Source of the DNA: Deltaproteobacteria bacterium
Lineage (GTDB): Bacteria; Desulfobacterota; Dissulfuribacteria; Dissulfuribacterales; QOAL01
DNA: 64,000 nucleotides
Reading direction: 5' to 3'
Assembly: GCA_015493475.1 (NCBI GenBank)
Contig: WGDC01000001.1
Span: 12,968-76,967 of the forward strand
The position numbers and the translations under genes were made by a program. Numbering within the stretch: the stretch's first letter is position 1; every line of letters begins with the position of its first letter. A model generated the notes under the pieces. That model was not told the origin of the DNA. It ran no database searches and worked only from the letters and a program-made list of their open reading frames with translations. Of this stretch, positions 8,502 to 61,397 are shown one piece after another.

Positions 8502-8505
8502 AAAC

Positions 8506-9621: not shown

Positions 9622-9633
9622 AAATCCCGTATT

Positions 9634-10569: not shown

Positions 10570-10579
10570 GATTAACCTG

Positions 10580-25378: not shown

Positions 25379-25390
25379 GCTAATTGAACC

Positions 25391-27296: not shown

Positions 27297-27319
27297 TGAA
27301 CTGACAAGTTTCGCAACGC

Positions 27320-27640
27320 CTACACACAACCGGTGGGCTTTGGAAGTCCAGCCATCTTGCAGGCTCCCTTGCCTGGTCCTGAGGGAAAAAGCTCGTATAT
27401 CTTCTTAAGGGGGTAACCCGTGGTCTTGGAAAGAATCCTGACCATGGGAGCAATTCCATTCTTCTTGAAATAGTCCTGGAGGACCTCGATAACCTTCTTG
27501 TGATCCTCGGTCAGCTCGCTGATACCCTCCTGCTCCATGACGTATTCTACCCAGTTTTCATCCCACTGCTCCATTCCCTTTGTAAGAAAACCGTCTTCAT
27601 CGACTTCATAAGCCTTGCCTTTGTACTCTATAGTTGCCAT
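27320..27640 (-). CDS. dsrC: dissimilatory sulfite reductase gamma subunit DsrC (TusE/DsrC family with both conserved C-terminal cysteines)
   Basis: MATIEYKGKAYEVDEDGFL...C-terminal arm GACKMAGLPKPTGCV, with a penultimate Cys and a Cys 11 residues upstream, the DsrC hallmark. Strong GGAGGG RBS. Confidence 0.92.
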   Translation of the reverse strand: MATIEYKGKAYEVDEDGFLTKGMEQWDENWVEYVMEQEGISELTEDHKKVIEVLQDYFKKNGIAPMVRILSKTTGYPLKKIYELFPSGPGKGACKMAGLPKPTGCV

Positions 27641-27859
27641 ATTGCCCTCCTTTTGGATTATTCTCTTATGTATGTCATGGCATATCGAGACAGTTTCTTA
27701 CTATAACCAAATATCTTTGTCAAGGCTCGTTAATTTTTTTTCAAGTTTGCGAAACGAAAAAAAATACTGTTATTTAAAGAGGTTATAACGAACAAAATCA
27801 CCAGAGTGGGGTTTTTTTGAATAGTTATTCATTTTTTTCACAATCAAGGATAAGAGAGT

Positions 27860-35475: not shown

Positions 35476-35614
35476 GGGAAAAGAAGATAAGACATGCTGG
35501 ATTTTCCTCAAGGCCCGGCAGGCGCGCAAGCGTTCGATGGCAGCTCCGAAACCTTTATGTAAAAGTGATTGCATGATAAGCTTACGTCTATTCCCGTCAA
35601 AAAGGAGAAAACTC

Positions 35615-38308
35615 ATGGGCATGACCGGCCTGTCGCATCTATTGTCGCCTTCAAGGATAGCAGTGTTCTCAAGTTCCCAGATTGACCAAAGATTTGAAAA
35701 AAGGCTCTTCCAGAACATCATCTCCTCCGGTTTCCGGGGGCCAATCTATCCCATCGACATAGAAAGGGAGGCGGTATGCGGGATCCCCGCCCACCGGACC
35801 ATAAAGGCCATAAAGAAGAGGCCGGACCTGGCGCTTGTCACAGGGTCACCGGACTTGGTACCGGGGGTCCTCGAAGAGTGCGGCAAGGCGGAAATACCTG
35901 CCGCCATCATATTTTCGATGGATTTCAGGCACAGGACTGCGGACAGTAAAAAGATCGCATCGAGGATAAAGGATATTTGCAAGGACTACAACATCCGGTG
36001 CATAGGCCCAAATTCCCTCGGAATCATAAGACCGGGCAATAACATAAATATCAGCGTGAGTCTCAAGGCGCCGCCAAGGGGAAAGGTGGCCTTCCTGTCC
36101 CAGAGTTCCACGCTTGCAGCCTCCATTCTCGACTATGCGGCGTCCAAGCACGTGGGGATGAGCACCTTCGTGTCCCTTGGGGCACAACTTGATGTCGACT
36201 TTTCAGACATCATCGACTTCCTGGCCATGGACCCGGAAACGAGGGGAATCATCCTCTACCTCGAATCCATAAAAAACGGCCGCAAATTCATCAGCGCAAG
36301 CCGCTCCTTTACCCGGACAAAGCCCATGGTGGTAATTAAGGGGGGCAGGTTTGAACAATCAAGACTCGTCTCCTTCAGCCGCATGGGCTCCCTTGCCGGC
36401 GAGGACATGGTTTACGATGCTGTGTTCAAAAGGGCGGGCATGGTCAGGGTGAAAGACGTGCTCGAGCTTTTCAACACCTCCGAGGCCCTTTCAAAACAGC
36501 CCGCTCCCAAGGGTAACCACCTCGCAATAGTCACCAACGCCGGAGGGCCGGCCGTTCTGGCGATAGATGTCCTCATAAAAAAGGGCGGGCACCTTGCCAC
36601 CCTGGAAAAGGAAACCGTTGACAGGATAAAAAAGGCCCTTCCTCCCACGGCCCCTGTTTCAAACCCTGTTGACTGCCTGTCTGACGCCTCGGCCTCGAGA
36701 TTTTCAGACGTGATAGACGCCCTTCTCCAGGATGATACCTCGGACGGGGTCCTCGTGATAGTGACGCCCCAGCCCTACACGGAACCTGGCGATACGGCCC
36801 AGACGCTTATAGGGCTTTCCCGCAGGCATCCCTACAAAACCATCCTTGCATGCTGGATGGGCAGTGAAGACATGGACCGGGCAAGGAAGATCCTTAACGA
36901 GAATGGGATACCCACCTTCGTAGCCCCGGAACAGGCGGTCAAGAGCTTCCTTTACATGTACGAATACGAGGCCAACAGGCAGATGCTGTCCCAGACACCT
37001 TCCAACATCCTCGTGGATTTTCATCCGGACAAGGAAAGGGCCCTTTCCATCTTCAAATCCGTTGCAAAGGACGGAAGGCTGTTCTTGCTTGAGCGGGAGA
37101 CTAAGCAGGTACTCGAGGCCTACGGCATCGAAACCACTCCCATGGCCCTGGCAAGGAGTCCGGAAGAGGCCCTCAAGATTGCGAGGAAAACTGGATTTCC
37201 CGTGGCTCTCAAGATAGAATCCCCGGACGTTCCCAACAAGAGCAAGGCGGGAGGGGTAAGACTGCACCTTTTGGAGGAGGATGTGAAAAAGGCGTTCCGG
37301 GAACTCAAGACCAACCTCAAGAAGTACATGCCTAATGCCGATTTTCACGGTTGCACTGTGGAACCTATGATACTTGGCATGGGGTACGAATTCGCAATGG
37401 GCGCCCAGAAAGACCCTACCTTCGGCTCGGTAATAGTCTTCGGGCTGGGGGGCCAGCTCCTCGAGGCGGAAAAGGACTACGCGGTAGGCCTCCCGCCGCT
37501 TAACCAGGCAGTTGCAAGGCGCCTTATGCAAGACACAAGGATATGCAAGTACTTATCGGAGGAACAGGACGGCCTCGAGATGATGGAAATCTTAGAAAAG
37601 GCACTGGTGCGTTTCTCCATACTCGTGGCAGACTTTTCGTTCATCAAGGAGATAGAAATCAACTCCTTTTTCCTTGAAAAGCAACGGGGTGTGTGCCTTG
37701 ACGGAAGGATCGTGCTCGAAGAAGAAGTACTCGAAGGTGTACGGGTTGGCCAGGGAAGTACCTGCCCGGAACACCTGGTAATATGCCCGTATCCCTGCCA
37801 GTACATAGACACCATGAAGCTGAAGGAGGGAACCCCTTACACCATCCGCCCCATCAAGCCGGAGGATGAACCCCTCATGGCTGAACTCTTTTCCACCTTC
37901 TCCGAGCAAACCATCATCAACAGATTCTTTCAGCTAAAGAAGAGCCTCACCCACGATGAATTGGCGAGATATTGCCAAGTGGATTATGATAGGGAAATCG
38001 CCCTCGTGGCGGTATTAGAATCCCAGGACAGGGAACGGATAATCGGCGTATGCAGGCTAACCATAATGCCTGACGGGGAAAACGCCGAGCTTGCAGTGGT
38101 AATAGGAGACCCATGGCAGGGACACGGCATCGGGAAGGCCCTCATGGCCAAGACCATTGAAGTGGCAAGGGAAAAGGGCCTGAAAAATATCTGGATGGAT
38201 GTTTTGAGAGACAACAACCCCATGAAAGGCCTCGCCAGGAAATTTGGCTTTAAGCTCGCGGAGTCCGAGGATCCGGATATCCTGCGCTTTGTCCTAGGGA
38301 ACCTTTGA
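35615..38308 (+). CDS. Pat-type protein acetyltransferase (ADP-forming acyl-CoA synthetase-like domains + C-terminal GNAT)
   Basis: AAGGAG RBS then ATG at 35615. LLSPSRIAVFSSS (CoA-binding start), succinyl-CoA-ligase-like and ATP-grasp regions, and a C-terminal GNAT (IGVCRL...VVIGDPWQGHGIGKALM). The ORF-track start at 35342 overlaps the divergent uvrA-like gene. Confidence 0.85.
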   Translation: MGMTGLSHLLSPSRIAVFSSSQIDQRFEKRLFQNIISSGFRGPIYPIDIEREAVCGIPAHRTIKAIKKRPDLALVTGSPDLVPGVLEECGKAEIPAAIIFSMDFRHRTADSKKIASRIKDICKDYNIRCIGPNSLGIIRPGNNINISVSLKAPPRGKVAFLSQSSTLAASILDYAASKHVGMSTFVSLGAQLDVDFSDIIDFLAMDPETRGIILYLESIKNGRKFISASRSFTRTKPMVVIKGGRFEQSRLVSFSRMGSLAGEDMVYDAVFKRAGMVRVKDVLELFNTSEALSKQPAPKGNHLAIVTNAGGPAVLAIDVLIKKGGHLATLEKETVDRIKKALPPTAPVSNPVDCLSDASASRFSDVIDALLQDDTSDGVLVIVTPQPYTEPGDTAQTLIGLSRRHPYKTILACWMGSEDMDRARKILNENGIPTFVAPEQAVKSFLYMYEYEANRQMLSQTPSNILVDFHPDKERALSIFKSVAKDGRLFLLERETKQVLEAYGIETTPMALARSPEEALKIARKTGFPVALKIESPDVPNKSKAGGVRLHLLEEDVKKAFRELKTNLKKYMPNADFHGCTVEPMILGMGYEFAMGAQKDPTFGSVIVFGLGGQLLEAEKDYAVGLPPLNQAVARRLMQDTRICKYLSEEQDGLEMMEILEKALVRFSILVADFSFIKEIEINSFFLEKQRGVCLDGRIVLEEEVLEGVRVGQGSTCPEHLVICPYPCQYIDTMKLKEGTPYTIRPIKPEDEPLMAELFSTFSEQTIINRFFQLKKSLTHDELARYCQVDYDREIALVAVLESQDRERIIGVCRLTIMPDGENAELAVVIGDPWQGHGIGKALMAKTIEVAREKGLKNIWMDVLRDNNPMKGLARKFGFKLAESEDPDILRFVLGNL

Positions 38309-50810: not shown

Positions 50811-51707
50811 ATGAGAAACAAAAAGTCTTCGGTCATTATTTTAACCATCCTTTTCCTGATAGTGACCGTTACCTGTGCGGCATACGCGGGGAAAAAGGAA
50901 ATGAACATTAAACCACCCAAAACCACCTTTGACAGAAACATCCAAAACATGGTTAGGCCCCCCAGGCCAGACCTCATTGTGACAGACATTAAGGCCAAGG
51001 ACGATCCTAAGGGCTGTTTTTTGCAGGTCACCTTGAAAAACAATGGACCAGGTAAAATCCCTGAGACCTACTACCATAAACCGCCAAGGGTGGCCATCCA
51101 GATGTATAATGGCAATAATCCCTGGGGAGGAATAGTCCTTTTTGGTTTTGACCCTTATAAGAAAGTACAAAATCCCGGTGGGATGGCAACTTGGGACTGG
51201 TTTCCCGGAGCCCAGAACCTGAGACTGCATCCAGGCTATTACACCATCAAGGTGGTGGCAGATAGTAACCACGAACTTGCAGAGGCGAATGAAAACAATA
51301 ATTCCCTGGCGAGAAAGGTCTCATGCGGTTGCAATGTCAGGCTACCAAAACCAGTGATAAGATATAGCAATAGGGACTCCAAGGGCAGGGTCTATATTCC
51401 TGTTGTAAACTGGGCAAGCTTCCCAAATGAACTCTTTCAGCCTGCTCCATATCTGCCGCCTTGTGGACTGAACAAGAACTCCTCAAGGACCTGGGTGAAC
51501 ATCTATGATGCGCAGACCAACCAGCGGCTTTATGGTTTCTGTGCCCTAGGCCATAGCAAGAATCTACAGGGTATTTGGTTCATGCCCCCTTCCAACGCCA
51601 AAGTAAAGGCCGTTTACGTCGAGATTAAAGACAGGGCCTGCGGCCGTAGTCAACGCTCAAACGTGGTAAATATATCCAAGTCCATGGGCATGGTAAAAAT
51701 ACGCTAA
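50811..51707 (+). CDS. secreted protein with CARDB-like domain
   Basis: AGGAGG RBS then ATG at 50811, followed by a signal peptide. PDLIVTDIKA...VTLKNNGPGKIP...GYYTIKVVADSNHELAEANENNNSL is the CARDB pattern. The C-terminal half is Cys-containing and unassigned. Confidence 0.6.
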   Translation: MRNKKSSVIILTILFLIVTVTCAAYAGKKEMNIKPPKTTFDRNIQNMVRPPRPDLIVTDIKAKDDPKGCFLQVTLKNNGPGKIPETYYHKPPRVAIQMYNGNNPWGGIVLFGFDPYKKVQNPGGMATWDWFPGAQNLRLHPGYYTIKVVADSNHELAEANENNNSLARKVSCGCNVRLPKPVIRYSNRDSKGRVYIPVVNWASFPNELFQPAPYLPPCGLNKNSSRTWVNIYDAQTNQRLYGFCALGHSKNLQGIWFMPPSNAKVKAVYVEIKDRACGRSQRSNVVNISKSMGMVKIR

Positions 51708-51718
51708 TCCTAAAGTAA

Positions 51719-51763
51719 GTGCCGAGCCTGCCACTCTAAGCCAGTCAGGATCGGCACTTTTTT
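51719..51763 (+). terminator. Rho-independent terminator after the CARDB gene
   Basis: GTGCCGA (51719-51725) pairs with TCGGCAC (51751-51757), followed by TTTTTT (51758-51763). Confidence 0.7.
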
Positions 51764-51813
51764 GTAAAATTTGAAACATCCTCCCTTCCCACACTCTGCT
51801 TGTGAATAATTTA

Positions 51814-51842
51814 TTGACAAAACCAACCTGCTCCATTAAAAA
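51814..51842 (+). promoter_or_regulatory. candidate sigma70-type promoter of the cytochrome c3 gene
   Basis: TTGACA (51814-51819), 17 nt spacer, TAAAAA (51837-51842), about 55 nt upstream of the ATG at 51897. Confidence 0.35.
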
Positions 51843-51896
51843 CAGAATCTGTACATGAATCATTATTCACAAAATAGAAGAAAGGAGGAGCGAGAA

Positions 51897-52265
51897 ATGC
51901 ACACCACCAAGGTGTTGTCAGTACTGTTTGCGCTGCTTTTCGGCTTGGCTGTAGCTGGTCTCGCAGCGGCAGGGGAGGGTCCGGAGGTTATAACGCTAAA
52001 GGCCAAGAAGGGAGACATCACTTTCCCGCATCACAAGCACCAAAAGATTACAAAGTGCGGTGAATGTCACCATGGACCAAACCATTCCCCATACAAGCCA
52101 GGTATGAAGATCCAGACCTGCGACAAGTGCCACAACAAGGACTTCCCCAACAAGAAGCTTAACAGCGTTATGAAGGCCCTGCACAAAAATTGCCGCGGCT
52201 GCCACAAAAAGCACAAGGCAGAGGGTGCACCAACAAAGTGCAGCGGCTGCCACAAAAAGAAATAA
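51897..52265 (+). CDS. periplasmic tetrahaem cytochrome c3-family protein
   Basis: AGGAGG RBS and a signal peptide. Four CxxCH (CGECH, CDKCH, CRGCH, CSGCH). ITFPHHKH distal-His motif. Lys-rich, 122 aa. Confidence 0.9.
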   Translation: MHTTKVLSVLFALLFGLAVAGLAAAGEGPEVITLKAKKGDITFPHHKHQKITKCGECHHGPNHSPYKPGMKIQTCDKCHNKDFPNKKLNSVMKALHKNCRGCHKKHKAEGAPTKCSGCHKKK

Positions 52266-52748
52266 CAAGGCAAAAAAACACAAGGAGGCAGGGCGTGCGC
52301 TCTCAAGGCAGGCCAGTTCCCCTATTTGCTTGGAACAAATTACTTTCAGAATCCTGATGCTGATCCCGCTCAAAATACCAGCCTTGGCATATTCCGTCTT
52401 TCAACAACAGCCCTTCTCCTTTTACGGGAAGAAAACACACAATCCAAACACAAGGAGTACTTGCAGCCACGGGAGAGGAGACTGGCCATCTGCGGGACAT
52501 GAAGTAAAAAAGGTTACTCACTTTTCTGTTGCAATTTATTCGTCTTTGTATTATGTAGGGACCTCAAATTTTGATCCGTAGCATATTTTCCCGGCCCATG
52601 CTGTCACCGCGGTGCTGACAGAGGAGGGTTCAATGTTCATTTAAGCCCGGAATGGCTCACCTGACGAGTTAAAACCGGGCGAGGGATGATAGTACGCTTT
52701 TTTCTTCTTTATGTCACAAACTACGAAAAAACAGGGAGAGCATGTTTC

Positions 52749-53459
52749 ATGAAGGTCACTAAAATGGTGTTCTTGGTCCTGGGTATGGTGGCGTCAGCCG
52801 CTCTTTTGGCTAATGGTATCGGACAGGCAAAATCCGAACAGGCAGCGGAGGCATCTCGGAAATGTGTAATCCGCAAGCAGCCGCCGAAGGAGGTCATTTG
52901 GGACAAGCCAAACAAGGCCGTTTTTAATCATGCCTACCATGTAGATGAGGTGGGCCTTGAATGCACCGACTGTCATAACCGCCTCTTTACCAAAAAAATA
53001 GGAGCCGCCTTAGGCAGAAAGGACTTCAACATGGACTCTTTCGCTAAGGGGAAATACTGCGGAGCGTGCCATAACGGCGAGGAGGCATTTAATGCCCAAA
53101 CCGAGTGCGATGCCTGCCACTTCGCGCCCAAAACGAGAATTGTGTTCACCAAACCGGTCAAGGCCGTGGTCTTTGAACACAAGATCCACGTGGGCAAGGC
53201 CAAGATAAAGTGCGAGACCTGCCATAAGAAGGTCTTTATCATGAGAAAAGCTGTCTTTGCCCACCTTAAGCCCGTGGAAACCGGAAGCATAGAGCTGAAG
53301 GACAGATACCTTGAAAAGCTGCACAAGAGGTTTTGTGGAACGTGCCATGACTCCCACAGGGCCTTTGGTTTTGCCACAAGGTGTACTGTCTGTCATATCG
53401 GGGTCAAGGGGTACACGCTTCTCAACAAGGAGGGCAAGCTCCCGGAAGACCATCAATAG
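52749..53459 (+). CDS. hexahaem cytochrome c built from two trihaem (c7-type-like) modules
   Basis: Signal/anchor MVFLVLGMVASAALLA. Two repeated blocks: VFNHAYHV..CTDCH..CGACH..CDACH and VFEHKIHV..CETCH..CGTCH..CTVCH. Confidence 0.85.
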   Translation: MKVTKMVFLVLGMVASAALLANGIGQAKSEQAAEASRKCVIRKQPPKEVIWDKPNKAVFNHAYHVDEVGLECTDCHNRLFTKKIGAALGRKDFNMDSFAKGKYCGACHNGEEAFNAQTECDACHFAPKTRIVFTKPVKAVVFEHKIHVGKAKIKCETCHKKVFIMRKAVFAHLKPVETGSIELKDRYLEKLHKRFCGTCHDSHRAFGFATRCTVCHIGVKGYTLLNKEGKLPEDHQ

Positions 53460-53543
53460 TTAAGAGCGAGAAGCCGGTTCTCAGCCATAAGGTAAGGAAA
53501 TGATTCCATAACACTAACATAAGTAACGGGAGAGGAAATACCT

Positions 53544-54851
53544 ATGAGCGAAGTGGAAATAAGCATTTCGGAAAAATGGGGTTACAACGGCCTTGCGGCC
53601 ATAAAAGAAGCCAGCACGGCCTACAAGATGGCCATGGGGTTTTTCGCGCTGCTGTTCTTGGTAGGCCTAGCCTTCGGCCTTCACGGGTTTTTCGTTGGCT
53701 ACAGGCATGTTTACGGGGTTACGCGGGAGATAGCGTGGGGACTCCTCATCTCCACATACATCTTTTGTGTCGTTACCTCCACGGGTCTTTGCATAGTGTC
53801 ATCGTTTGGCCACGTCTTTGGCAACGTGGCATTCATGCCCATTGCAAAAAGGGCGGTATTCATGTCCATAGTGTTTCTTGTCGGGGGATTCTGCATCATA
53901 TTCTTTGACCTGGAAAACCCCTTCAGACTGTTTATATGGAACGTGGTTTCACCGAACCTGCGCTCTAACATGTGGTGGATGGGAACCCTGTACGGTGCCT
54001 ACATGGTATTCATGATGCTGGAGTACTACTGCCTGCTCAACCAGAACCACTCGGTATCGAGAATAATGGGCTTCTTGGGCCTCGCCGTTGGTATAGCGGC
54101 GCACAGCAACCTCGGGGGCATCTTTGGCATGCTGCACGGCAGGCCATTCTGGTATGGTCCCTACCTTCCCATCTATTTCATATTTTCCGCTGCAATGTCA
54201 GGAGGCTGCGCCATTCTCTTCTTCACCACCCTCGGGGCAAGATTCAACCCGGAAGTAATGAACGAAACCATGCAGCGGGCGGTAAAGGCCATCACCCTTC
54301 TCACCATCTACTTTATTGTGGTTATCATGTTTTTCACCCTTTGGAAGATTATCACTGGACTCGTGTCAGAGGGAAAGGCACCGGTCATCGAATCCTTTCT
54401 CTATGGCAAATACGCGGTCAACTTCTGGTTCTTCGAGGTCTTTCTCGGGATGATCCTGCCCCTTGCCCTCTTAATCATTTCAAAGGGCAGGAAATACAAC
54501 CTAATAATGTGGGTTACCGGCATCCAGATGATAGGAATCTTCTTCATGCGCTATGACATCGTGATACCTGGCCAGATGGTTCCTGTATACCACTCCCTCG
54601 GGGTAGTGGAGGCCTCCCATCTGCTGAGTTATACGCCGTCGTGGCACGAGATAATGATATCCATCTACGGGGTATCCTTTGTGGCCTTGTTATACCTGGC
54701 CGGAGAAAGGTTGTTTAACAGCCACCAGCTCCAAAAACACGAAATCGTTCCAGAAGGGGCGTACGTGTGCCCAGGTTGTGGCGCTATCCACTATATGAAG
54801 GAGGGCGAGACGATAGAAGAGGCCATGAAACGTCACCACGGCGGTTGGTAA
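53544..54851 (+). CDS. NrfD/PsrC/DsrP-family polytopic quinone-interacting membrane subunit
   Basis: 435 aa, about 10 TM. Its position between the cytochrome c and FeS subunits supports the call. It has a C-terminal soluble tail with CPGCG. Confidence 0.8.
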   Translation: MSEVEISISEKWGYNGLAAIKEASTAYKMAMGFFALLFLVGLAFGLHGFFVGYRHVYGVTREIAWGLLISTYIFCVVTSTGLCIVSSFGHVFGNVAFMPIAKRAVFMSIVFLVGGFCIIFFDLENPFRLFIWNVVSPNLRSNMWWMGTLYGAYMVFMMLEYYCLLNQNHSVSRIMGFLGLAVGIAAHSNLGGIFGMLHGRPFWYGPYLPIYFIFSAAMSGGCAILFFTTLGARFNPEVMNETMQRAVKAITLLTIYFIVVIMFFTLWKIITGLVSEGKAPVIESFLYGKYAVNFWFFEVFLGMILPLALLIISKGRKYNLIMWVTGIQMIGIFFMRYDIVIPGQMVPVYHSLGVVEASHLLSYTPSWHEIMISIYGVSFVALLYLAGERLFNSHQLQKHEIVPEGAYVCPGCGAIHYMKEGETIEEAMKRHHGGW

Positions 54852-54922
54852 GAACTTGGCGCCTATTGACACAGACAAATCATGTTAGAGGATACCTTTG
54901 AACTTTCAGGAGGCATTTGGAT

Positions 54923-55744
54923 ATGCGGATTCACGGAATAAAATTCGATGATACGAAAAACGAGGGCACGGGATCGGTTACCAAGATGGAAAGGAGAAAA
55001 TTCCTTAAAATGGGCTTTGCCATAGCAGGCGTCTTTGCTGGAGGCAAAATACTTGGCCTGACCTCCATCGTGGGCTCGGCAAGGGCCTCTGACGGCATCG
55101 AGGTGGAGGCCTACCCTTACAGCCCCCATTACAGCATGGTGGTGCGCCAGGCAATATGCATAGACTGCGAGCGTTGCGTGGATGCCTGCAAGAAGACCAA
55201 CCATGTACCGGATTACGGTTACAGGACGCGCATACTCACGAAAAAATACGAGGGCAAGTGGGACAAGGCCGTGGAGTTTATCCCGGTCCTGTGCAACCAT
55301 TGCAACAATCCCCCCTGCGTCAGGGGATGTCCCACAAAGGCCACCTACAAGGACCCCATAACAGGTATCGTACGAATGAACAGCAAGAAGTGCATTGGAT
55401 GCAAGACATGCATACTTGCCTGCCCCTATGACGCCAGGTACTTCTGTGAAGAAAAGCGTGCGATAGACAAGTGTGATTTCTGCTGGGACGAGAGACTGTC
55501 AAAGGGAGAGAAGCTCACTGCCTGTGCCGCTGCCTGTCCCACAGGGGCAAGGACCTTCGGCAATATCGCGGACCCTGATGACATAGTGTACAAGCTAGTC
55601 CACCAGGCCGAGGAGGTGGTGTGGGTCCTGCGCCCGGAAGATAACACCAAGCCCAATGTATTCTACATGAAGGGGACCATCGGATCGGTGGAAAGGATAC
55701 TCAAGGGTACCAAGTACCGATACTTTGACCCCACCAAGATCTGA
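54923..55744 (+). CDS. Tat-exported 4x[4Fe-4S] ferredoxin subunit (NrfC/DsrO/HybA/PsrB-like)
   Basis: Twin-arginine signal ERRKFLKMGFAIAGVFAG. Four Cys clusters (CIDCERCVDAC, CNHCNNPPCVRGCP, CIGCKTCILACP, CDFC...CAAACP). Alternative start at 54986. Confidence 0.9.
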   Translation: MRIHGIKFDDTKNEGTGSVTKMERRKFLKMGFAIAGVFAGGKILGLTSIVGSARASDGIEVEAYPYSPHYSMVVRQAICIDCERCVDACKKTNHVPDYGYRTRILTKKYEGKWDKAVEFIPVLCNHCNNPPCVRGCPTKATYKDPITGIVRMNSKKCIGCKTCILACPYDARYFCEEKRAIDKCDFCWDERLSKGEKLTACAAACPTGARTFGNIADPDDIVYKLVHQAEEVVWVLRPEDNTKPNVFYMKGTIGSVERILKGTKYRYFDPTKI

Positions 55745-55771
55745 TATCCCCTCATAAAACGTCCCCTCTTT

Positions 55772-55815
55772 AAGAAAGGCAATTGGCAGCGAGAAAAGGT
55801 CCGGTTGCCTTTCTT
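55772..55815 (+). terminator. hairpin downstream of the FeS-subunit gene (possible terminator)
   Basis: AAGAAAGGCAA (55772-55782) is the perfect reverse complement of TTGCCTTTCTT (55805-55815). The loop is 22 nt and there is no clean T-run. Confidence 0.4.
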
Positions 55816-56123
55816 GCCTCGCCTTCCGTATGGCAAACAGCCCGCCGTAAGCCCGCCCCCTGTCTGCCACTGTTTTCTGATAGAACCAGGAATTACCTTT
55901 GCGCCACCGGCTCAAGAGAGCTATTCTCCATATAGAAATCCAGCAGTGTCCCTGTACAGGGGACTTACGGTAGGTTTTGCGGGGAAGGGCTGGCTATGCC
56001 CGTTCCGCTATTTATGACAATGAGCTTGAACAAAAAAGATATTCTCCTAACAATACGTATTCAATGTCTTTGTTCACTATTTGTTTTTTTGCAAAATATT
56101 ATATTAATAGTGAAAAATTTCCC

Positions 56124-56152
56124 TTGACATATTTGCGCTAATTCGTTATCAA
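56124..56152 (+). promoter_or_regulatory. candidate sigma70-type promoter of the 19-haem cytochrome operon
   Basis: TTGACA (56124-56129), 17 nt spacer, TATCAA (56147-56152), within a markedly AT-rich stretch (56040-56200). Confidence 0.4.
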
Positions 56153-56228
56153 ATTCACAATGAATTATCATTCATTTTTCACCATGACCTAACTTCTTGC
56201 TTAAACTGCCGGGTGGGAGGAGGCCATA

Positions 56229-58238
56229 TTGCAGTGGCCATTTCTTGGATCATTATTGAAAAGGATAAGCGACATGAAAAGAGATGCATGGAAAGGGAAA
56301 GGGTTTCTAAAAGGACTCTTCTTGATTTTGCTCCTCGGGCTGACCATAGATAGCCACAACGCGCTCGCCATGACCAACGAGGAATGCCTCGAATGTCACA
56401 GTGACGAAGGAATCACTCGGGAGGCGGATGACAGCTCGGTTTACGTAAACCCTGATGTCTTCGCCAAGTCGGTACATGGGGGAGAAGATTGCATGTCATG
56501 CCACACGGACGCAAAGGGTGAGGATGAGCATCCACCGCACCTAAAGAAGGTACAATGTTCCATGTGCCATGAGGACATAGCCAAAACATTTGATGGGATC
56601 ATTCACGGCAAGGCGCATGGGGACAAGAAGCAGACTGCCCCAAGTTGCAAGAGCTGCCACGGAACCCATGATATCCTTCCCCCGGATGATCCAGCCTCAA
56701 AGGTATACATACTAAACATACCGGCCACGTGCAGCAGGTGCCACTGGAAGGAAAAGGCCGGCGGGGGAAAGGGTACACTTCCCAAAAACGCCATGAACAT
56801 CCACGGCAAGGCAATAGAGGGAGGGATCACGGTTGCTGCGGTTTGTACCACGTGCCACGGATCCCACGATGTAGTCGCCTACACAAACCCCGCTTCTCCG
56901 GTAAGCTATAAAAAACTGAAGAAAACCTGCACGAGGTGCCACGCAGGCCTTCCTGCCATCCATAAAAATGTCATAAAGCCTTCCATATGGGTGAAGGACC
57001 CAGCCAAGATTCCCCTTTGCATCCAGTGCCACCTGCCTCACGGAAAGAGGAAGTTAAAGTACCCCCAGGTCTTCACGGATGACTACTGCCTAAAATGTCA
57101 CAGCAACCCGAACCTTATAAGGCCGGACAGGAAAGGAGGGATTGACAGCCTTTACGTAGATACGGATGAATACGACGAATTTGCCGGGACGATGCACAAG
57201 AAAAAGGGCCTCACCTGCGTCATGTGTCATCCCAAGATGGACAGGGAAGAAAACCCCGTGTGCAAGAACGCGGGGCCAGTGGACTGCTCCACGTGTCACG
57301 CTGATGTCTTCAATGACTACCTGCACAGTGTACACGGCATAAAACGTTCCGGCGAACTCGATCCCAACGCACCTTCTTGCGTGGATTGTCACGGTAAACA
57401 TGCCATCCTGGCAAAGGACAACCCGGACTCCCTAATAAATCCCATAAACATCCCGAGACTTTGCGCTTCCTGCCATGCCAAAGGGGAAAAGGCATCCATA
57501 AGGCGCGGAGAAGGCGTGGACGTGGTCTCTACATACCTGAAGAGCGTTCACGGAGACGGGTTGGAAAACGGCGGGCTGGTGGTTTCTGCCTCCTGCGTGG
57601 ATTGTCACGGCGGCCACAAAATCCTCCCCTCTTCCAACCCCAAGTCAACCGTGAACAAGGGCAACATCCGCCAAACCTGCGAAAAATGCCACTACGGCGT
57701 GGGAATAAAACTGGCCCAATCGGTCCACAATCCTCCTTTCGGTGCGGACAAGTCCCTTTTCCCTGCCTGTACCGACTGCCACACGTCGCATGAGATTTTG
57801 AGAGGCACGGATCCAAACTACAGGAGGCATGAAATCCAGGCATGCGCAAAGTGCCATCCAGAGGAGGCGGAAACCTACCTCGAAAGCTACCACGGAAAGG
57901 CTGCGTTTCTCGTGGGTGGCGAAAGAGTTGCCCATTGTTCAGACTGCCACGGCAGCCACGACATTCTTGCGGTGACAGACCCACTGTCCACCCTTTCCGG
58001 TGAGAATGCGGTAAAGACATGCCGAAAGTGCCATCCAAAGGCAAACCTGAGCTTTACCACGTACAGGACCCACGCCTCGCACTGGGACAAGGAAAAGAAC
58101 CCGGACATGTACTACTCCTTCATCGCCATGACCTCCCTGCTGCTTGGAACCTTCGCGATTTTCGGCATTCACACCATCCTCTGGATACCGCGTTCGTTGA
58201 AGGAGAGATTGAAAATGAAAAAAGACTCCGATGCATAA
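56229..58238 (+). CDS. membrane-anchored multihaem cytochrome c with 19 CxxCH motifs
   Basis: I counted 19 CxxCH motifs. N-terminal signal (LFLILLLGLTIDSHNALA). C-terminal TM helix (YYSFIAMTSLLLGTFAIFGIHTILWIP). Six repeats of CxxCH-[GT]-x-H-x-[IV] followed by a Pro/Ser-rich turn. GGAGG plus TTG at 56229, or ATG at 56274. Confidence 0.9.
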   Translation: MQWPFLGSLLKRISDMKRDAWKGKGFLKGLFLILLLGLTIDSHNALAMTNEECLECHSDEGITREADDSSVYVNPDVFAKSVHGGEDCMSCHTDAKGEDEHPPHLKKVQCSMCHEDIAKTFDGIIHGKAHGDKKQTAPSCKSCHGTHDILPPDDPASKVYILNIPATCSRCHWKEKAGGGKGTLPKNAMNIHGKAIEGGITVAAVCTTCHGSHDVVAYTNPASPVSYKKLKKTCTRCHAGLPAIHKNVIKPSIWVKDPAKIPLCIQCHLPHGKRKLKYPQVFTDDYCLKCHSNPNLIRPDRKGGIDSLYVDTDEYDEFAGTMHKKKGLTCVMCHPKMDREENPVCKNAGPVDCSTCHADVFNDYLHSVHGIKRSGELDPNAPSCVDCHGKHAILAKDNPDSLINPINIPRLCASCHAKGEKASIRRGEGVDVVSTYLKSVHGDGLENGGLVVSASCVDCHGGHKILPSSNPKSTVNKGNIRQTCEKCHYGVGIKLAQSVHNPPFGADKSLFPACTDCHTSHEILRGTDPNYRRHEIQACAKCHPEEAETYLESYHGKAAFLVGGERVAHCSDCHGSHDILAVTDPLSTLSGENAVKTCRKCHPKANLSFTTYRTHASHWDKEKNPDMYYSFIAMTSLLLGTFAIFGIHTILWIPRSLKERLKMKKDSDA

Positions 58239-58267
58239 CACCGGAAGCGTATAAAAGGGAGGTTTAA

Positions 58268-59113
58268 ATGAACAGCGGCGAAACTATATACGTTCAGAGG
58301 TTTAACGCCTTTGCCAGGATACTTCACTTTTTCGTTATAATAAGTTTCCTCACCCTGGCCCTCACGGGAATGTGCCTCAAGTTCTCCACGGAGTCATGGG
58401 CACAATGGACAGCTTCCATGTTTGGCAGTTTCAGGGTACTGGGCGTGCTTCACCGCATTGCCGCGGTAATAACCTTTGGATACTTTTTCGGCCATTTCAT
58501 CCTGGTCTACCATAACTACCGGAAAAGCGGGAAGCCCCTTTTGAGATTCATAATCGACGAAAACACCGGAATGGTTCCAAACCTGAGGGACCTCCAGGAG
58601 ATAGGTCAGACCATCAAGTGGTTTCTCGGCAAGGGGCCGCGGCCTGCATACGGACGCTGGACTTACTGGGAGAAGTTTGACTACCTCGCAGTGTTCTGGG
58701 GTGTTGCGGTCATCGGATTCACAGGACTATGCCTGTGGTTCCCGGTATTTGCCACTCGCTATCTTCCAGGATGGTTTCTCAACATCGCCACCATTGTTCA
58801 CAGTGACGAGGCGCTGCTTGCTACAGGCTTCATCTTCACCATACATTTCTACAATACCCACCTGAGGCCAGAAAAATTCCCCCTTGACAAGGTGATTTTT
58901 ACCGGGGTGGTAACCCTAGATGAACTGAAGCATGAAAGGCCCCGCGAATACGAGACCCTTGTAAGGGAAGGACGCTTAGACGAGGTTATCACGGATCCGC
59001 CTCCGAGGTGGCTAGTGATATTCGCATACGTCTTTGGGCTCTCTGCGGTTACCATAGGCCTGTCCCTCATATTCACCATATTTTTCACCCTGCTGAAATA
59101 CGGGTTGAGATAA
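58268..59113 (+). CDS. b-type cytochrome membrane subunit (FdnI/PhsC/Ni-hydrogenase cytochrome b family-like)
   Basis: GGAGG RBS. RFNAFARILHFFVIISF...VLHRIAAVITFGYFFGHF...TIVHSDEALLATGFIFTIHFYNTH shows conserved His residues on TM helices. 29 nt after the cytochrome c stop. Confidence 0.8.
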   Translation: MNSGETIYVQRFNAFARILHFFVIISFLTLALTGMCLKFSTESWAQWTASMFGSFRVLGVLHRIAAVITFGYFFGHFILVYHNYRKSGKPLLRFIIDENTGMVPNLRDLQEIGQTIKWFLGKGPRPAYGRWTYWEKFDYLAVFWGVAVIGFTGLCLWFPVFATRYLPGWFLNIATIVHSDEALLATGFIFTIHFYNTHLRPEKFPLDKVIFTGVVTLDELKHERPREYETLVREGRLDEVITDPPPRWLVIFAYVFGLSAVTIGLSLIFTIFFTLLKYGLR

Positions 59114-59209
59114 AGCAAAACGGGATCGCACCTTGAAAATGGTATACCTCAGACAACTTGACAACCCCCAGCGCCGGGAATACAGCGTCCTAACAAATGG
59201 TAACAGCCA

Positions 59210-59521
59210 ATGAACAGTAACGTGCCCTTAAAAAGAAGACTTGCCATATACGCCACGGAAATATTGATGGTGCTCCTTTTGATCTTAATGTTACGAAATT
59301 TCGTAAGCGCCATCTACTATAGCGTAAAGACCAGCACCGCAGAGATACAACGGTATTACGAGAAAGGGATAACAGACGCCACTGAGTTGAGCAAGAAAGG
59401 CAACATTCTTGAACCGGTACGGGATATCGCGAATCCCCTTCTGCTAAGGATGTACGAAAAGGGATTCCGGGACGGCATAGACTCGACAAGAAACGAAAGG
59501 AGTAAACATGAGAAGGGGTAA
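59210..59521 (+). CDS. small single-TM hypothetical protein
   Basis: 103 aa with one TM (IYATEILMVLLLILML). Its 3' end overlaps the next gene's start by 14 nt, which suggests translational coupling. Confidence 0.4.
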   Translation: MNSNVPLKRRLAIYATEILMVLLLILMLRNFVSAIYYSVKTSTAEIQRYYEKGITDATELSKKGNILEPVRDIANPLLLRMYEKGFRDGIDSTRNERSKHEKG

Positions 59522-60377
59522 TCTAATAATAGGGCTGATGATTTCTTTTCTCTCGGGTGCTTATCTGTCATCCGGAATCTCGGTGGCATCAACCATCCTC
59601 GACATACCTGCCATAGGCGCGGATAAGCTTAAACACGAGCTCTACGAAGGGCCTCCCATGGTGTGCGCCAACGCGCTAAGCCCCATTGAATTCCAGGACC
59701 TGACCATTAGGGGATCAGTGAACATCCCGTCGAGCAGGGTAAAGGACAATCCAAACCTCCCGGAGGACAAGGGAGAGCTCCTGGTCTTTTTCTGCAAGGG
59801 CCTCCCTACGTGACTTAAAAGCCACGAAGCCGCCAGGAAGGCGGTTAAACTTGGCTTTACCAACGTAAAGGTCTATTCCAAGGGCCTCCCGGACTGGATA
59901 CGGAGAAGATACCCCGTGATCCGTATGGTCAACTATCCCAAGGTTCGCATTCCCCTTATCCATCCTTCGCAGGTCATGAAGAAACTCAACGAGCTTACTA
60001 TCCTCGACATAGGTGGCGAGGAGCTCAATAAGATAGGGCAGTTCAAGAGGGGCAATGTTATTCACATCCCCATGGACGATCTCGAAGACGACTACAACAA
60101 GCTACCCAAGGACAGGACCCTGGTGATCACCGACGTAATGGGAAAGCAGGAACAGATCGCCGGGAGGTTCCTGTGGATGAAAGGATACAGAAAACTCTTG
60201 GCCATGAAGGGGGGTGGCCGCGCCTGGTTTGATACCGTGCGGGTACTGAAAAGAATCCAGACAGAGGAAGCTCCTATCGGAACAAAAAAGTTTAAAGAAA
60301 CGGAAAAACAGGTGAAAGAAAAGATAAAGGCCGAGCCGAAAGAGAAGAAGAAGAAGAACAGGTCAGCACCATGGTAA
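59508..60377 (+). CDS. periplasmic tandem rhodanese-domain protein, probable selenoprotein (in-frame UGA at 59811-59813 read as Sec)
   Basis: AGGAG RBS and a signal peptide. ORFs 59508-59813 and 59916-60377 share one frame, and there is no stop in 59814-59915. The TGA splits a single rhodanese fold inside the active-site loop: LLVFFCKGLPT-[UGA]-LKSHEAARKAVKLGFTNVKVYSKGLPDWIRRRYPV. A SECIS-like hairpin follows. The second rhodanese-like domain lacks Cys, and the tail is Lys-rich. Confidence 0.7.
59818..59858 (+). promoter_or_regulatory. putative bacterial SECIS element
   Basis: Lower stem AAAGCC (59818-23) / GGCTTT (59853-58). Internal loop. Upper stem AGCCGCC (59828-34) / GGCGGTT (59840-46, including one G-U pair). 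Apical loop AGGAA (59835-39), with GG about 23 nt after the UGA. Confidence 0.6.
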
Positions 60378-60468
60378 GGCTTCAAGGTCATAGACTTAGT
60401 AACCCGCACTGATTGCCCGAAAAATGATACGGGCCATGGGGAAAACTCCAGGCTGTTATAGTCAATCG

Positions 60469-60523
60469 CGCTTCATGGGGCTTAATCTAGAGACCCTACC
60501 CGCCCCATGAAGCGTTTACTTTT
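60469..60523 (+). terminator. hairpin plus T-rich tract downstream of the rhodanese gene
   Basis: CGCTTCATGGGG (60469-60480) is the perfect reverse complement of CCCCATGAAGCG (60503-60514). It is followed by TTTACTTTTAA. The 22-nt loop is large for a canonical terminator. Confidence 0.5.
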
Positions 60524-60635
60524 AATGCTTGATGCCGTGCCATCTTTCCATTCCTTCGGGCAGGGCAGACAACGGCCATGTGCCCTGCTTCACGGGCCTA
60601 CCCAAACAGACAGATAAAAAACTCGAAGCAAGTAG

Positions 60636-61397
60636 ATGAGAAATATCAAGCTTACCATCACATACAACGGCACCGGGTTTCACGGATGGCAAAGCCAGCA
60701 TAGGGTAAGAACCGTGCAGGCCTGCATAGAAGAAGCCATTTCCACCATGACGGGAGAGAAGGTAAAACTCCTGGGCTCAGGCCGTACCGACGCTGGGGTT
60801 CACGCCATCTGCCAAGTGGCAAACTTCCTTACAAATTCAAAAATTCCCGTCCGGGGCATGGAAAAGGGGCTGAACAGTCTGCTTCTAGAAGACGTGGCCA
60901 TCATTTCCGCAACGGAGGTCCCGTTGCAGTTTCATGCAAGGAAAAGCGCCAAGGGCAAGACCTACCGATACCGGATAGTTAAAAGCGACAAGAGGCTCCC
61001 ACTATTGCACAGGAAGGCATGGATTACACGGCGAACCCTGAAACTTGCCTCCATGCAGGAGGTGGCAAGCTTACTGCTTGGGACACACGACTTTTCTTCC
61101 TTCATGGCTGCAGGTTCAAGCGTCTCTACAACCATACGCACAATCAACACGATAGAAGTAAGACAGACCCTATGCCCCGAGTACCTGCCCTGTGAATTCG
61201 AAGAGTACCAGATCGAGATAAATGCCAACGGTTTCCTCAGATACATGGTAAGAAACATAACGGCCCTTTTAAAAGAGGTGGGCTGCGGACGTCTTTCTTC
61301 CCGGGACGCTAGCGCCATTGTCAAGGCACGGAACAGGGCTGCCTCTCCCCCAACCGCCCCTGCATGGGGCCTATATCTCGTCAAGGTTGACTATTGA
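60636..61397 (+). CDS. truA: tRNA pseudouridine(38-40) synthase TruA
   Basis: IKLTITYNGTGFHGWQSQ...LLGSGRTDAGVHA (catalytic Asp)...GTHDFSSF...FLRYMVRN. Confidence 0.93.
   Translation: MRNIKLTITYNGTGFHGWQSQHRVRTVQACIEEAISTMTGEKVKLLGSGRTDAGVHAICQVANFLTNSKIPVRGMEKGLNSLLLEDVAIISATEVPLQFHARKSAKGKTYRYRIVKSDKRLPLLHRKAWITRRTLKLASMQEVASLLLGTHDFSSFMAAGSSVSTTIRTINTIEVRQTLCPEYLPCEFEEYQIEINANGFLRYMVRNITALLKEVGCGRLSSRDASAIVKARNRAASPPTAPAWGLYLVKVDY

Follow-up and report, generated by a model that had tools for sequence, protein, structure and literature searches.

The window analysed here, a 64-kb stretch of DNA, carries on its plus strand a gene for a tandem-rhodanese protein of 289 residues, very probably a selenoprotein, at positions 59508..60377. 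Translation of this interval gave a single stop symbol at codon 102 (TGA 59811-59813) among 289 sense codons, and the gene ends at the TAA 60375-60377; a Shine-Dalgarno sequence, AGGAG, stands 7 nt ahead of its ATG. The 34 codons between the TGA and the next possible start in the window (GTG 59916) contain no stop and no ATG, GTG, or TTG. An earlier note on this DNA had stated that two ORFs in this region share one frame, with the TGA as the sole interruption of 289 codons, and that this TGA falls inside one rhodanese fold. The translation agrees with the former statement, and the latter is borne out by the Pfam Rhodanese model PF00581, which scored 46 bits (cutoff, 22.2) over two stretches corresponding to two domains, the best stretch (residues 58-131) running directly across the UGA. 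ORF tracks cut the selenoprotein gene into 59508-59813 and 59916-60377; these two ORFs are one gene. Two minus-strand ORFs overlapping it (59642-59863 and 59715-60065) were set aside and disregarded because the substitution pattern tracks the frame of the plus strand. Further pairs of same-frame ORFs split by TGA were looked for across the window, which yielded only adjacent independent genes and noise, and promoter and terminator scans of 51500-60800 gave matches no more numerous than in shuffles.

All features described below lie on the plus strand. The protein begins with a probable Sec-type signal peptide (59508..59591, boundary approximate) composed of MRRG, a hydrophobic core, and SVAS, and a hydrophobic N terminus ending in small residues was found in all homologues aligned; export to the periplasm via this N-terminal signal peptide is probable. 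The N-terminal rhodanese domain, delimited to approximately residues 32-137 (59601..59918) by the alignment to the NCBIfam model NF041203 and by the rhodanese fold, is catalytically equipped. Its extended active-site loop, C-K-G-L-P-T-U-L-K-S, opens with Cys96 (codon TGC, 59793..59795), the canonical rhodanese catalytic Cys, which directly follows the central beta-strand (LLVFF-C) and whose column is invariant across 49 sequences. The UGA (59811..59813), which we read as Sec102, occupies the second position of the loop, an invariant Cys in full-length homologues and a TGA in related loci. The resulting C-x5-U arrangement (FFC96-KGLPT-U102-LKS) had been pointed out before; it is correct for the window protein but specific to its clade, since most relatives have C-x4-U or C-x4-C.

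The C-terminal rhodanese domain (approximately residues 145-249; 59940..60254) was recognized by rhodanese-type matches over residues 143-249 and as the second domain of an AF2 model. It carries the invariant Asp209 in place of the catalytic Cys and is presumably non-catalytic. It is followed in the sequence alignment by a variable, Lys/Glu-rich C-terminal tail (60255..60374), of which a long version occurs, among the aligned sequences, in the clade of the window only (the window, L001, and L003); six Cys-form homologues (P0003-P0008) lack the tail. The AF2 model, computed for the Cys-form homologue P0003 (pLDDT 92, with an N-terminal helix of low confidence), locates the two Cys residues within the active-site loop and shows a strand at residues 83-87, C88 as the equivalent of Cys96, the loop, and a helix at residues 95-105. 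The top Foldseek matches were all rhodaneses.

Comparison with homologues revealed that the column of the UGA is an invariant Cys in 48 full-length proteins (six in the first alignment), and that 21 related loci, mostly from Desulfobulbaceae, have an in-frame TGA at this column. These loci come from independent assemblies, encode proteins with 59-90% identity to the window protein, and represent, with the window included, 18 distinct sequences. Beyond the UGA, 16 of the distinct sequences run on to a stop after 159-187 open codons; this true stop is TAA or TAG in 15 of them, and L094 runs off the end of its locus after 129 codons. Differences in the post-UGA part of 17 sequences were distributed over the first, second, and third codon positions as 731:486:3086. 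The sequence downstream of the UGA evolves as coding sequence under purifying selection. The earlier note had proposed aligning the UGA column across orthologues, which yielded the pattern of Cys in 48 homologues and TGA in 21 loci, and had allowed for homologues that end at this site as genuine short proteins; this latter prospect is refuted by the continuing frame and the predominance of third-position changes. Across the wider family, the Sec motifs U-K-L-S, U-A-M-S, and U-L-R-S occur as well.

Directly downstream of the UGA, the transcript is predicted to form a SECIS-like hairpin. RNAfold of 59805-59870 returned a structure of -24.3 kcal/mol (z = -3.88), and none of 200 shuffles folded as well. 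The full hairpin (59818..59858) is two-tiered, with a lower stem at 59818-24/59852-58, an upper stem of 7 bp at 59828-34/59840-46, and the apical loop AGGAA at 59835-39, whose G residues lie 23-24 nt past the UGA, in agreement with the distance of about 23 nt estimated earlier. Of the two tiers described in the earlier note, both are thus returned by RNAfold in the window, but conservation in relatives extends to the upper stem and the loop only. The RNAalifold consensus defines the conserved SECIS core at 59829..59845, comprising a 6-bp stem (59829-34/59840-45; GCCGCC/GGCGGU) that begins 15 nt past the UGA and the loop AGGAA (59835-39). The lower stem was rejected as a part of the conserved element, with 62% of cells paired in relatives, and is probably local to the window's clade.

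In the 18 UGA sequences, the consensus stem contains no broken pair, and pair 24-36 is UA in 10 and CG in 8 of them. This switch between C-G and U-A falls on two synonymous Ala third positions and occurred at least two times on the neighbor-joining (NJ) tree, and the synonymous sites of codons +7 to +9 (GCC AGG AAG) are frozen, whereas neighbouring codons are variable. Another 28 Sec forms from the wider family carry a hairpin in the same register, built from other stem sequences. In this wider set of 40 sequences, pair 22-38 is represented by GU (15), UA (14), GC (4), and AU (2), and the covariation score was 0.26 compared to 0.108 for shuffles, with none of 500 shuffles reaching it. Every Sec form possesses a hairpin with a 6-bp stem at a fixed distance from the UGA with a G-containing loop, whereas Cys forms show no uniform hairpin (local energy of -7.3 versus -11.2 kcal/mol). 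Within the closest clade, covariation rests on a single base pair. Part of this structure may be owed to constraints on the coding sequence: the hairpin sits in codons for the conserved peptide AARKAV, and a comparable one is present in the Cys form L026. Rfam searches of the whole window at gathering thresholds and of 59700-59950 at E<=10 returned no SECIS or other family, with matches at chance level.

The element resembles bacterial SECIS of the Escherichia coli fdhF type, and the bSECISearch consensus, in being a stem-loop directly 3' of the UGA within coding sequence and in presenting an apical-loop G at a fixed distance (in the window, GG at nt 26-27, counting the U of the UGA as 1). The SECIS loop of fdhF contains G22 and G23, with G23-U24 as the critical pair. 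The window differs from this type in that its loop AGGAA lacks a GU dinucleotide, its conserved part has no evident bulged U, and its spacing is about one codon longer than that of fdhF.

The column of Cys residues, the 21 TGA loci, and the covarying hairpin support the earlier proposal of a probable Sec-containing rhodanese. Very likely, then, this is one gene in which the UGA at codon 102 is recoded as Sec and which specifies an exported product with two rhodanese domains. Decoding of UGA 59811-59813 as selenocysteine is strongly supported; Sec insertion itself we infer from the sequence comparisons. By the standard bacterial mechanism, the SECIS stem-loop just 3' of the UGA (6-bp GC stem and AGGAA loop, 59829-45) would recruit SelB, which would bring Sec-tRNA(Sec) to the ribosome, and the stop would be read through.

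The UGA might instead be read through without Sec, by a near-cognate Trp or Cys tRNA stimulated by the hairpin or by a suppressor tRNA, giving a Cys or Trp protein. Downstream hairpins can in general stimulate read-through, and Sec machinery was not found in the regions covered: selA, selB, and selD were not among the approximately 40 Pfam-annotated genes of the 64-kb window, and ARAGORN detected neither tRNA nor tRNA-Sec in the window and the 21 related loci, an absence that is uninformative about the genome as a whole. However, every homologue without the UGA has Cys in this column, the classic signature of a Cys/Sec pair, and a hairpin positioned directly 3' at fixed spacing, with a conserved G near the start of the apical loop, has the features of a SECIS. 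Moreover, UGA and hairpin recur at the same site in relatives from Nitrospirota, Desulfobacula, and Desulfovibrio, the nearest curated families are selenoproteins, and Desulfobulbales are known Sec users. Read-through without Sec is highly improbable in our assessment. Desulfobulbales also include a relative, Desulfotalea psychrophila. This species is a known Sec user, listed with 12 selenoproteins (PMC1794560).

Even less probable is a genuine stop, which would leave a truncated protein of 101 residues and a separate downstream protein, be it a split rhodanese or a decaying pseudogene. Gene callers treat the loci in this way, with fragments of 176 aa and approximately 149 aa stored as separate proteins (P0001, P0002, and P0099-P0118), and TGA is a normal stop in the window's organism. 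Yet termination at this site would sever a single rhodanese fold between the active-site loop and the helix, and the 34 post-UGA codons, although devoid of a start in the window, are highly conserved and change predominantly at third positions. No second lesion was found in the 18 distinct sequences that share this arrangement, with protein identities as low as 59%, and a pseudogene would not retain the covarying hairpin. A sequencing or assembly error or a reassigned code (e.g., UGA as Gly or Trp), for which the bare presence of an in-frame stop speaks and nothing more, is effectively refuted, as assemblies from ENA, Logan, JGI, and GenBank independently show the same TGA and as TGA terminates 13 of the 37 Pfam-supported genes in the window, which indicates the standard genetic code.

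In public data, this gene and no fewer than 21 relatives are mis-annotated, being either cut into two fragments or entered as truncated proteins. Metabolic reconstructions of the genomes concerned, mostly Desulfobulbaceae, consequently miss a probable exported selenoprotein.

Sec-containing rhodaneses and the recoding mechanism are already established, and the gene adds to a catalogued kind rather than introducing a new principle. Reviews list five Sec-containing rhodanese forms, including one with the motif UxxS (PMC9312934, PMC13188914), and the statement in the earlier note that rhodaneses are among the selenoprotein families was right. Form 1 is defined by PF00581 and the motif UxxS, with WP_010941598.1 of Geobacter sulfurreducens as the reference, following Zhang and Gladyshev 2005 as tabulated (PMC9312934, PMC13188914). 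The window protein combines a PF00581 domain with U102-L-K-S105 and belongs to form 1 by motif, the comparison with WP_010941598.1 being one of published motif description and not of sequence. It differs in its tandem domains, its C-x5-U loop, and its cytochrome operon, none of which appears in the accessible part of the published description of form 1. G. sulfurreducens was not among the matches listed in a protein search seeded with a Geobacter relative.

The two best NCBIfam matches of the window protein were rhodanese selenoprotein models, NF041203 (E = 5e-13) and NF045694 (E = 2.5e-12), which likewise represent rhodaneses with Sec in the active-site loop. Membership in either family was rejected. 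The protein scored 48.8 bits against the 115 of NF041203 (rhodanese_LYCAU, form 3), whose motif CxU differs from the C-x5-U of the window loop, and 45.7 bits against the 805 of NF045694 (TsoB, form 5, a rhodanese/DsbD fusion with the motif UxxxxU), over residues 84-140 only. The U-x4-U spacing of TsoB equals the C-x4-[C/U] spacing of the wider family studied here, but the DsbD-like membrane domain is absent from the window protein, and the first loop position of the latter is Cys, not Sec. Our data add to these a two-chalcogen rhodanese loop whose second position is a well-supported Sec/Cys pair; Sec stands there in several phyla-level lineages, each of which has a homologous SECIS hairpin.

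The rhodanese gene is the last of a conserved cytochrome module. Directly upstream, 59210..59521 encodes a protein of 103 aa that has a single predicted transmembrane helix and matches no family. The last 14 nt of this small gene overlap the start of the rhodanese gene, which suggests that their translation is coupled; the small gene occupies this position in nearly every locus with enough upstream sequence and a tblastn match above threshold. Further upstream are genes for a membrane cytochrome b of the FdnI/Ni-hydrogenase b-type (58268..59113), syntenic in Sec and near-Cys forms, and for a likewise syntenic multihaem cytochrome c of 669 aa (56229..58238) with 19 CxxCH motifs and a C-terminal hydrophobic anchor. 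This 19-haem cytochrome contains no UGA and has one invariant extra Cys (C345) outside the haem motifs. All Sec forms and the nearest Cys forms keep this module, made up of cytochrome c, cytochrome b, the small protein, and the rhodanese. The module is preceded in the window by genes at 52686..55744 for a cytochrome c7-like hexahaem protein (52686-53459), an NrfD-type membrane subunit (53544-54851), and an NrfC-type 4Fe-4S subunit (54917-55744), which together may form a quinol-linked electron-transfer module and which adjoin the cytochrome/rhodanese module also in L001, L006, L008, L009, L010, and L027.

Because the gene ends a cytochrome module beside NrfCD and cytochrome c7, a role in periplasmic sulfur redox processes is suggested, and a periplasmic Sec/Cys redox-active sulfur or selenium transferase, as put forward in the earlier note, would be a reasonable fit to this context. 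Cys96 of the N-terminal domain and the second chalcogen, Sec102 (Cys elsewhere), 5-6 residues on and just before the active-site helix, might act in concert, most plausibly as follows: Cys96 would accept sulfane sulfur from polysulfide, thiosulfate, or a persulfide, and Sec102 would serve as the resolving or attacking nucleophile, generating an Se-S or Se-S-S bridge. Electrons exchanged by the quinone pool and the periplasm via the co-transcribed cytochrome b, the 19-haem cytochrome c, and the NrfCD/c7 module might then reduce this bridge again or, with the flow reversed, oxidise it. Location, substrate, and electron path are inferred here, and we propose only tentatively that Cys96/Sec102 sulfane-sulfur chemistry is coupled to the quinone pool via the cytochromes. 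The conserved association with genes for the 19-haem cytochrome, cytochrome b, and NrfCD provides a concrete candidate for a cytochrome-based periplasmic sulfur redox system.

Sud is a polysulfide-sulfur transferase serving a periplasmic sulfur reductase. Like the Sud/PsrABC system of Wolinella succinogenes and PhsABC, the window protein would represent a periplasmic rhodanese fold serving a quinol-linked sulfur reductase, and the Sud structure (PDB 1qxn) matched its second rhodanese domain (E = 8e-5). Sud, however, is a single-domain, single-Cys protein, whereas the window cluster pairs its rhodanese with a 19-haem cytochrome and a cytochrome b. A Sud/Psr-type system was rejected for this cluster, which includes no molybdopterin subunit; only distant relatives have PhsA-like neighbours. 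That a catalytic sulfur reductase could not be recognised in the cluster counts against the proposed function as such.

A parallel in chemistry may be MccSep/ExtKL of G. sulfurreducens, a pentahaem selenoprotein polysulfide reductase that combines periplasmic Sec, Cys, and haem and whose cluster also encodes a rhodanese-like protein, ExtH (PMC13510729, PMC6148476). Both systems would be periplasmic and haem-fed and would use Sec with an essential Cys in sulfur-sulfur chemistry. They differ in that Sec lies within the cytochrome in MccSep and within the rhodanese in the window, where the cytochrome has no UGA; the family-profile matches of the window genes gave no sign of a sequence relationship between MccSep and the 19-haem cytochrome. 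The question is topical since the discovery in 2026 of MccSep as a Sec-dependent multihaem polysulfide reductase (PMC13510729). It is tempting to speculate, unlikely as we judge it, that the Sec-rhodanese is the substrate-handling or catalytic subunit of a Mo-free quinol-linked periplasmic sulfur oxidoreductase, whose Cys96/Sec102 loop would carry the sulfur chain and dock on the 19-haem cytochrome, with C345 ligating a catalytic haem. Such an arrangement, if true, would distribute over two proteins the kind of Sec, Cys, and haem active site that MccSep holds within one polypeptide. In the wider family, the surroundings of the gene vary: distant members adjoin genes for PhsA-like molybdoenzymes and NrfC-like genes in nine loci, in keeping with a sulfur redox role, and more distant Cys forms lie in an unrelated context, with MCP and MauE genes, which speaks against it.

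The earlier note had taken the locus at 59508-60377 (+) for a probable selenocysteine (Sec) rhodanese, an identification that proved correct in light of the Cys/Sec column, the coding pattern past the UGA, and the covarying hairpin. The locus is one gene of tandem rhodanese fold. Across its family Sec and Cys alternate at the second position of the active-site loop, the SECIS-like hairpin is conserved and covaries, and the operon with its quinone-linked cytochromes is conserved as well. We consider it very probable that UGA codon 102 is recoded. Translation gave 289 sense codons with a TGA at 59811-59813 (codon 102) as the sole interruption, confirming the single frame. The mechanical ORF track split the gene because the upstream ORF terminates at this TGA and the first later in-frame start in the window ORF list is GTG 59916; the 34 codons between them (LKSHEAARKAVKLGFTNVKVYSKGLPDWIRRRYP) hold neither a stop nor a start. 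The Pfam rhodanese model scored 46 bits (cutoff, 22.2), and its best stretch, residues 58-131, crosses the UGA, which places the TGA inside one rhodanese fold, as had been claimed. Some gene callers start relatives at a GTG where the window has the Val codon GTT, and thus no independent route to translate the conserved post-UGA segment exists here. TGA terminates 13 of the 37 Pfam-supported window genes, so UGA normally acts as a stop in this organism and has to be recoded locally at codon 102.

The search of a collection of 5.8 billion proteins yielded six full-length homologues (244-271 amino acids), all with Cys at the column aligned to the UGA (e.g., FFCKG-PVCVKS and FYCKGPKCGKS). A profile search returned 443 relatives, and both the catalytic C96 and the UGA column (C102) were invariant in an alignment of 48 full-length ones. 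We then scanned genome and metagenome collections, where the best match to the window among genome representatives stood at 69%, and read the codon at this column in three groups among 114 related loci. In-frame TGA was present in 21 loci (18 distinct sequences counting the window), from Desulfobulbaceae, Desulfobulbus, and Desulfocapsa MAGs in independent ENA, Logan, JGI, and GenBank assemblies. Sister lineages (FFCKGPVCVKS, FFCKGVICVKS) and a more distant FYCKGPKC[GST]KS group carried TGC or TGT. This is the comparison the earlier note had proposed, and the column holds either Cys or UGA. A neighbor-joining tree united the Sec forms in a single clade, with the Cys forms of the same operon type as its sister group. 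The C-x5-U arrangement noted before holds for the window's loop (LLVFF-C96-KGLPT-U102-LKS), but as a general pattern it is a clade-specific variant of C-x4-[C/U]: most TGA loci read FFCKGPG-U-LKS (C-x4-U), and FFCKGLPT-U-LKS is confined to the window's own clade.

P0001 and P0002, which rank closest among the database proteins, are 176-amino-acid fragments starting just past the UGA; they represent the same split gene, because their contigs read FFCKGLPT-stop-LKSHEAARKAVKLGY in frame. Many "rhodanese" fragments of 140-176 amino acids beginning at this point occur in public protein collections (P0001, P0002, and P0099-P0118; contigs checked for P0001 and P0002), and gene callers thus misannotate this family systematically.

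A pseudogene or non-coding spacer after the UGA is excluded by third-position-dominated substitution and a long open frame: over 44 post-UGA codons in 17 Sec-form sequences, pairwise differences at codon positions 1:2:3 were 731:486:3086, with 2447 synonymous versus 896 non-synonymous codon differences, and the frame stayed open for 159-187 codons in the 16 Sec-form sequences reaching a stop (TAA or TAG in 15 of 16), and in L094, the remaining one of the 17, it is still open where the locus ends, 129 codons past the UGA. The homologues therefore do not end at this position as short proteins, a possibility raised in the earlier note.

Recoding of codon 102 is further supported at the RNA level. 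RNAfold on 59805-59870 reproduced the two-tier hairpin described earlier (lower stem 59818-24/59852-58, upper stem 59828-34/59840-46, loop AGGAA) at -24.3 kcal/mol versus -13.5 +/- 2.8 for dinucleotide shuffles (z = -3.88; 0/200 as stable), but only the upper stem is the conserved SECIS candidate, the lower one being paired in 62% of cells and shifting register among sequences. RNAalifold on the 18 Sec-form sequences found one consensus helix, alignment columns 22-27/33-38 (window 59829-34/59840-45, loop AGGAA), without a single broken pair. Pair 24-36, which joins the third positions of two Ala codons, is U-A in 10 sequences and C-G in the other 8. On the tree C-G appears in two clades that lie apart, implying at least two double substitutions. 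Codons +7, +8, and +9 (GCC AGG AAG) make up the loop together with the 3' end of the 5' arm, and even their synonymous sites do not change (17/17, 17/17, and 16/16 of Lys codons); the flanking Leu, Lys, Ser, Val, and Gly codons are free to vary. The 30 nt holding the hairpin folded at -11.2 +/- 2.1 kcal/mol in 20 Sec forms versus -7.3 +/- 3.5 kcal/mol in 29 Cys forms taken as a control, and no hairpin in the SECIS register was found in these 29 except in L026. This TGC-bearing locus has GCCGCC-GGCAA-GGCGGU in the exact register (~8175-8235), perhaps either left over from a recent change of Sec to Cys or a by-product of encoding A-A-x-K-A-V. No Rfam model matches the hairpin. Bacterial SECIS elements lie directly 3' of the UGA inside the ORF at fixed spacing and carry a G in the apical loop, properties that the hairpin fits. 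The loop GG is at nt 26-27 here, compared with G22 and G23 in Escherichia coli fdhF, where G23-U24 is the critical pair.

The loop [FY]YC-x-G-x-x-[C/U]-x-x-S marks rhodanese domains of a wider family, detected in loci of Desulfobacula, Nitrospirota, Desulfovibrio/Pseudodesulfovibrio, Geobacter, and Betaproteobacteria. The same column holds Sec in some members and Cys in others, and in certain proteins both tandem domains carry Sec. A hairpin in the same register (nt 19-24 with 30-35 from the U of the UGA) was present in 28/28 distinct wider-family Sec forms with differing stems (UCCGCC/GGCGGA, GCUGCC/GGCAGA, CUCUGCC/GGCGGAG, GCCGCC/GGCGGC) and loops keeping G in the first two positions; these hairpins are independent replicates of the SECIS-like element. 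In a 40-sequence alignment, the core six pairs were formed in most cells (single pairs in 35-40 of the 40 sequences), pair 22-38 being GU15/UA14/GC4/AU2 and pair 24-36 CG18/UA16/UG3/GC1, and the covariation score was 0.26; shuffles gave 0.108 +/- 0.016 (0/500), and slid registers no more than 0.103. In MAGs of Desulfobacula type and of other deltaproteobacteria, certain tandem rhodaneses have an in-frame TGA at the corresponding loop position of each domain, every one with its own hairpin, which makes them double-Sec proteins (L033, 2480 and 2792; L034, 3907 and 4219; L035 and L049, both 8106 and 8418). The loop YCRSFx-U-LRS, with a GC-rich hairpin following the UGA, distinguishes a separate group (L059, ~7095; L069, ~9226; L071, ~9330; L079, ~9328; L078 has the Cys counterpart, ~9250). 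Its clusters also encode a PhsA-like molybdoenzyme, an NrfC-like protein, and a second tandem rhodanese, of Cys type.

The 64-kb window yielded no tRNA at all, and its ~40 annotated genes included no selA, selB, or selD; in the 21 related loci no tRNA-Sec was detected. We take Desulfotalea psychrophila to belong to the same order as the host. It has 12 selenoproteins (PMC1794560), and rhodanese selenoproteins are abundant in deltaproteobacterial symbionts (PMC1976440); the Sec-decoding trait of the host is argued from these reports together with the conserved UGA and SECIS signature.

The AlphaFold2 model of P0003, a Cys-form homologue from the same operon type (55% identical to the window protein), has two rhodanese domains (mean pLDDT 92.2). 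Its C88, equivalent to C96, directly follows central strand E83-87 at the canonical catalytic position, and C93, in the Sec column, lies five residues further on and two residues ahead of helix 95-105. The classical active-site cradle is C-x4-[R/T], and the loop here is 2-3 residues longer. The best solved relative, 6mxv, differs in a shorter loop without the second Cys (YCG--SGFRS), and no solved two-chalcogen loop was found. In the second domain an invariant Asp takes the catalytic position, and this domain is presumably non-catalytic. The N-terminus (MRRG, a hydrophobic stretch, SVAS) resembles a signal peptide of the Sec secretion pathway. We propose that, after SelB-dependent Sec insertion at codon 102, the protein would be exported to the periplasm, where Cys96 may take up sulfane sulfur and Sec102 may attack or resolve it via a Se-S intermediate, with electrons supplied or removed by the neighboring cytochromes. 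A specific sulfur-redox role is a tentative assignment.

Such recoding is textbook. Of the new elements, the operon context is the most interesting. The rhodanese ATG is overlapped by 14 nt by the end of a gene for a 103-amino-acid single-helix protein (59210-59521, +) without Pfam or NCBIfam match, which directly precedes the rhodanese in nearly all operon-linked loci. Upstream lie a cytochrome b of FdnI/Ni-hydrogenase type (58268-59113, +) and a 669-amino-acid cytochrome c (56229-58238, +) with 19 CxxCH motifs and a C-terminal hydrophobic segment, followed farther upstream, in order, by an NrfC-type 4Fe-4S protein, an NrfD-type membrane protein, a hexahaem c7-like cytochrome, and a tetrahaem c3. 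Every Sec form and the nearest Cys forms are set in the order cytochrome c, cytochrome b, small protein, rhodanese, and the c7-NrfD-NrfC module adjoins wherever the contig is long enough. All 16 orthologues of the large cytochrome examined (L001, L005-L010, L012, L013, L027, L085, L092-L094, L096, and L114) have 19 haem motifs and, beyond these, a single Cys: the invariant C345, which lies within P-[VI]-C-x3-G-P-V, 8 residues ahead of a haem motif. It is tempting to speculate that C345 might be a distal haem ligand. Distal Cys ligands are known from sulfur-transforming cytochromes such as TsdA, SoxA, and DsrJ. One was also described for MccSep (PMC13510729), a periplasmic pentahaem selenoprotein reported in 2026 to reduce polysulfide by Sec and a haem-ligating Cys, whose gene cluster includes a rhodanese-like lipoprotein gene (PMC13510729, PMC6148476); MccSep is a precedent for this style of chemistry, with no homology to window proteins demonstrated.

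In nine loci, distant rhodanese members adjoin an NrfC-like subunit and a molybdoenzyme; among NCBIfam models the latter matches thiosulfate reductase PhsA best, with 552 bits against a cutoff of 694. Next after the all-Cys FYC[KL]GPKC tandem rhodaneses come genes for an MCP-signal protein and for a MauE/DoxX-type membrane protein (L119, 8001-10673; L120, 437-3192), a partner set different from the cytochrome operon. With TsoB counted among them, the distant members give mixed signals; what they share is a periplasmic rhodanese loop with two chalcogens and, paired with it, a membrane partner for electron transfer. In L072, a Geobacter-type 467-amino-acid protein (7554-8957) with an N-terminal CxxCH, several rhodanese domains, and the loop FYCAGINCYMS directly precedes a Tat-signal molybdoenzyme (9125-11329; best match PhsA, sub-threshold).

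The earlier note's statement that rhodaneses are listed among selenoprotein families is borne out by two reviews, which give five Sec-containing forms: UxxS, UxxG, CxU, UxxG (COG2897), and UxxxxU/TsoB, the last a rhodanese/DsbD-like fusion (PMC9312934, PMC13188914). The window protein shares the UxxS motif with the first. Its best NCBIfam match was the CxU model (48.8; cutoff, 115), with TsoB also among the best (45.7; cutoff, 805); both scores being far below the cutoffs, it is a relative of these families and a member of neither. A full-text literature search combining rhodanese, selenocysteine, and Desulfobulbaceae found nothing. The protein adds to a known kind of Sec rhodanese and is possibly a new subfamily.

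Elsewhere in the window, 30241-35721 (-) encodes an 1826-amino-acid protein that combines multiple ABC/UvrA-type ATPase modules with domains for UvrA interaction and DNA binding. It is roughly twice the length of UvrA (~940 amino acids), and its 5' end overlaps ORF 35342-38308, which the mechanical track lists for the opposite strand. The region 24023-29584 (-) holds a fusion of a YcaO cyclodehydratase with TPR repeats (27860-29584), a 574-amino-acid protein without Pfam match (25391-27115), and a MiaB-like radical SAM enzyme (24023-25378).
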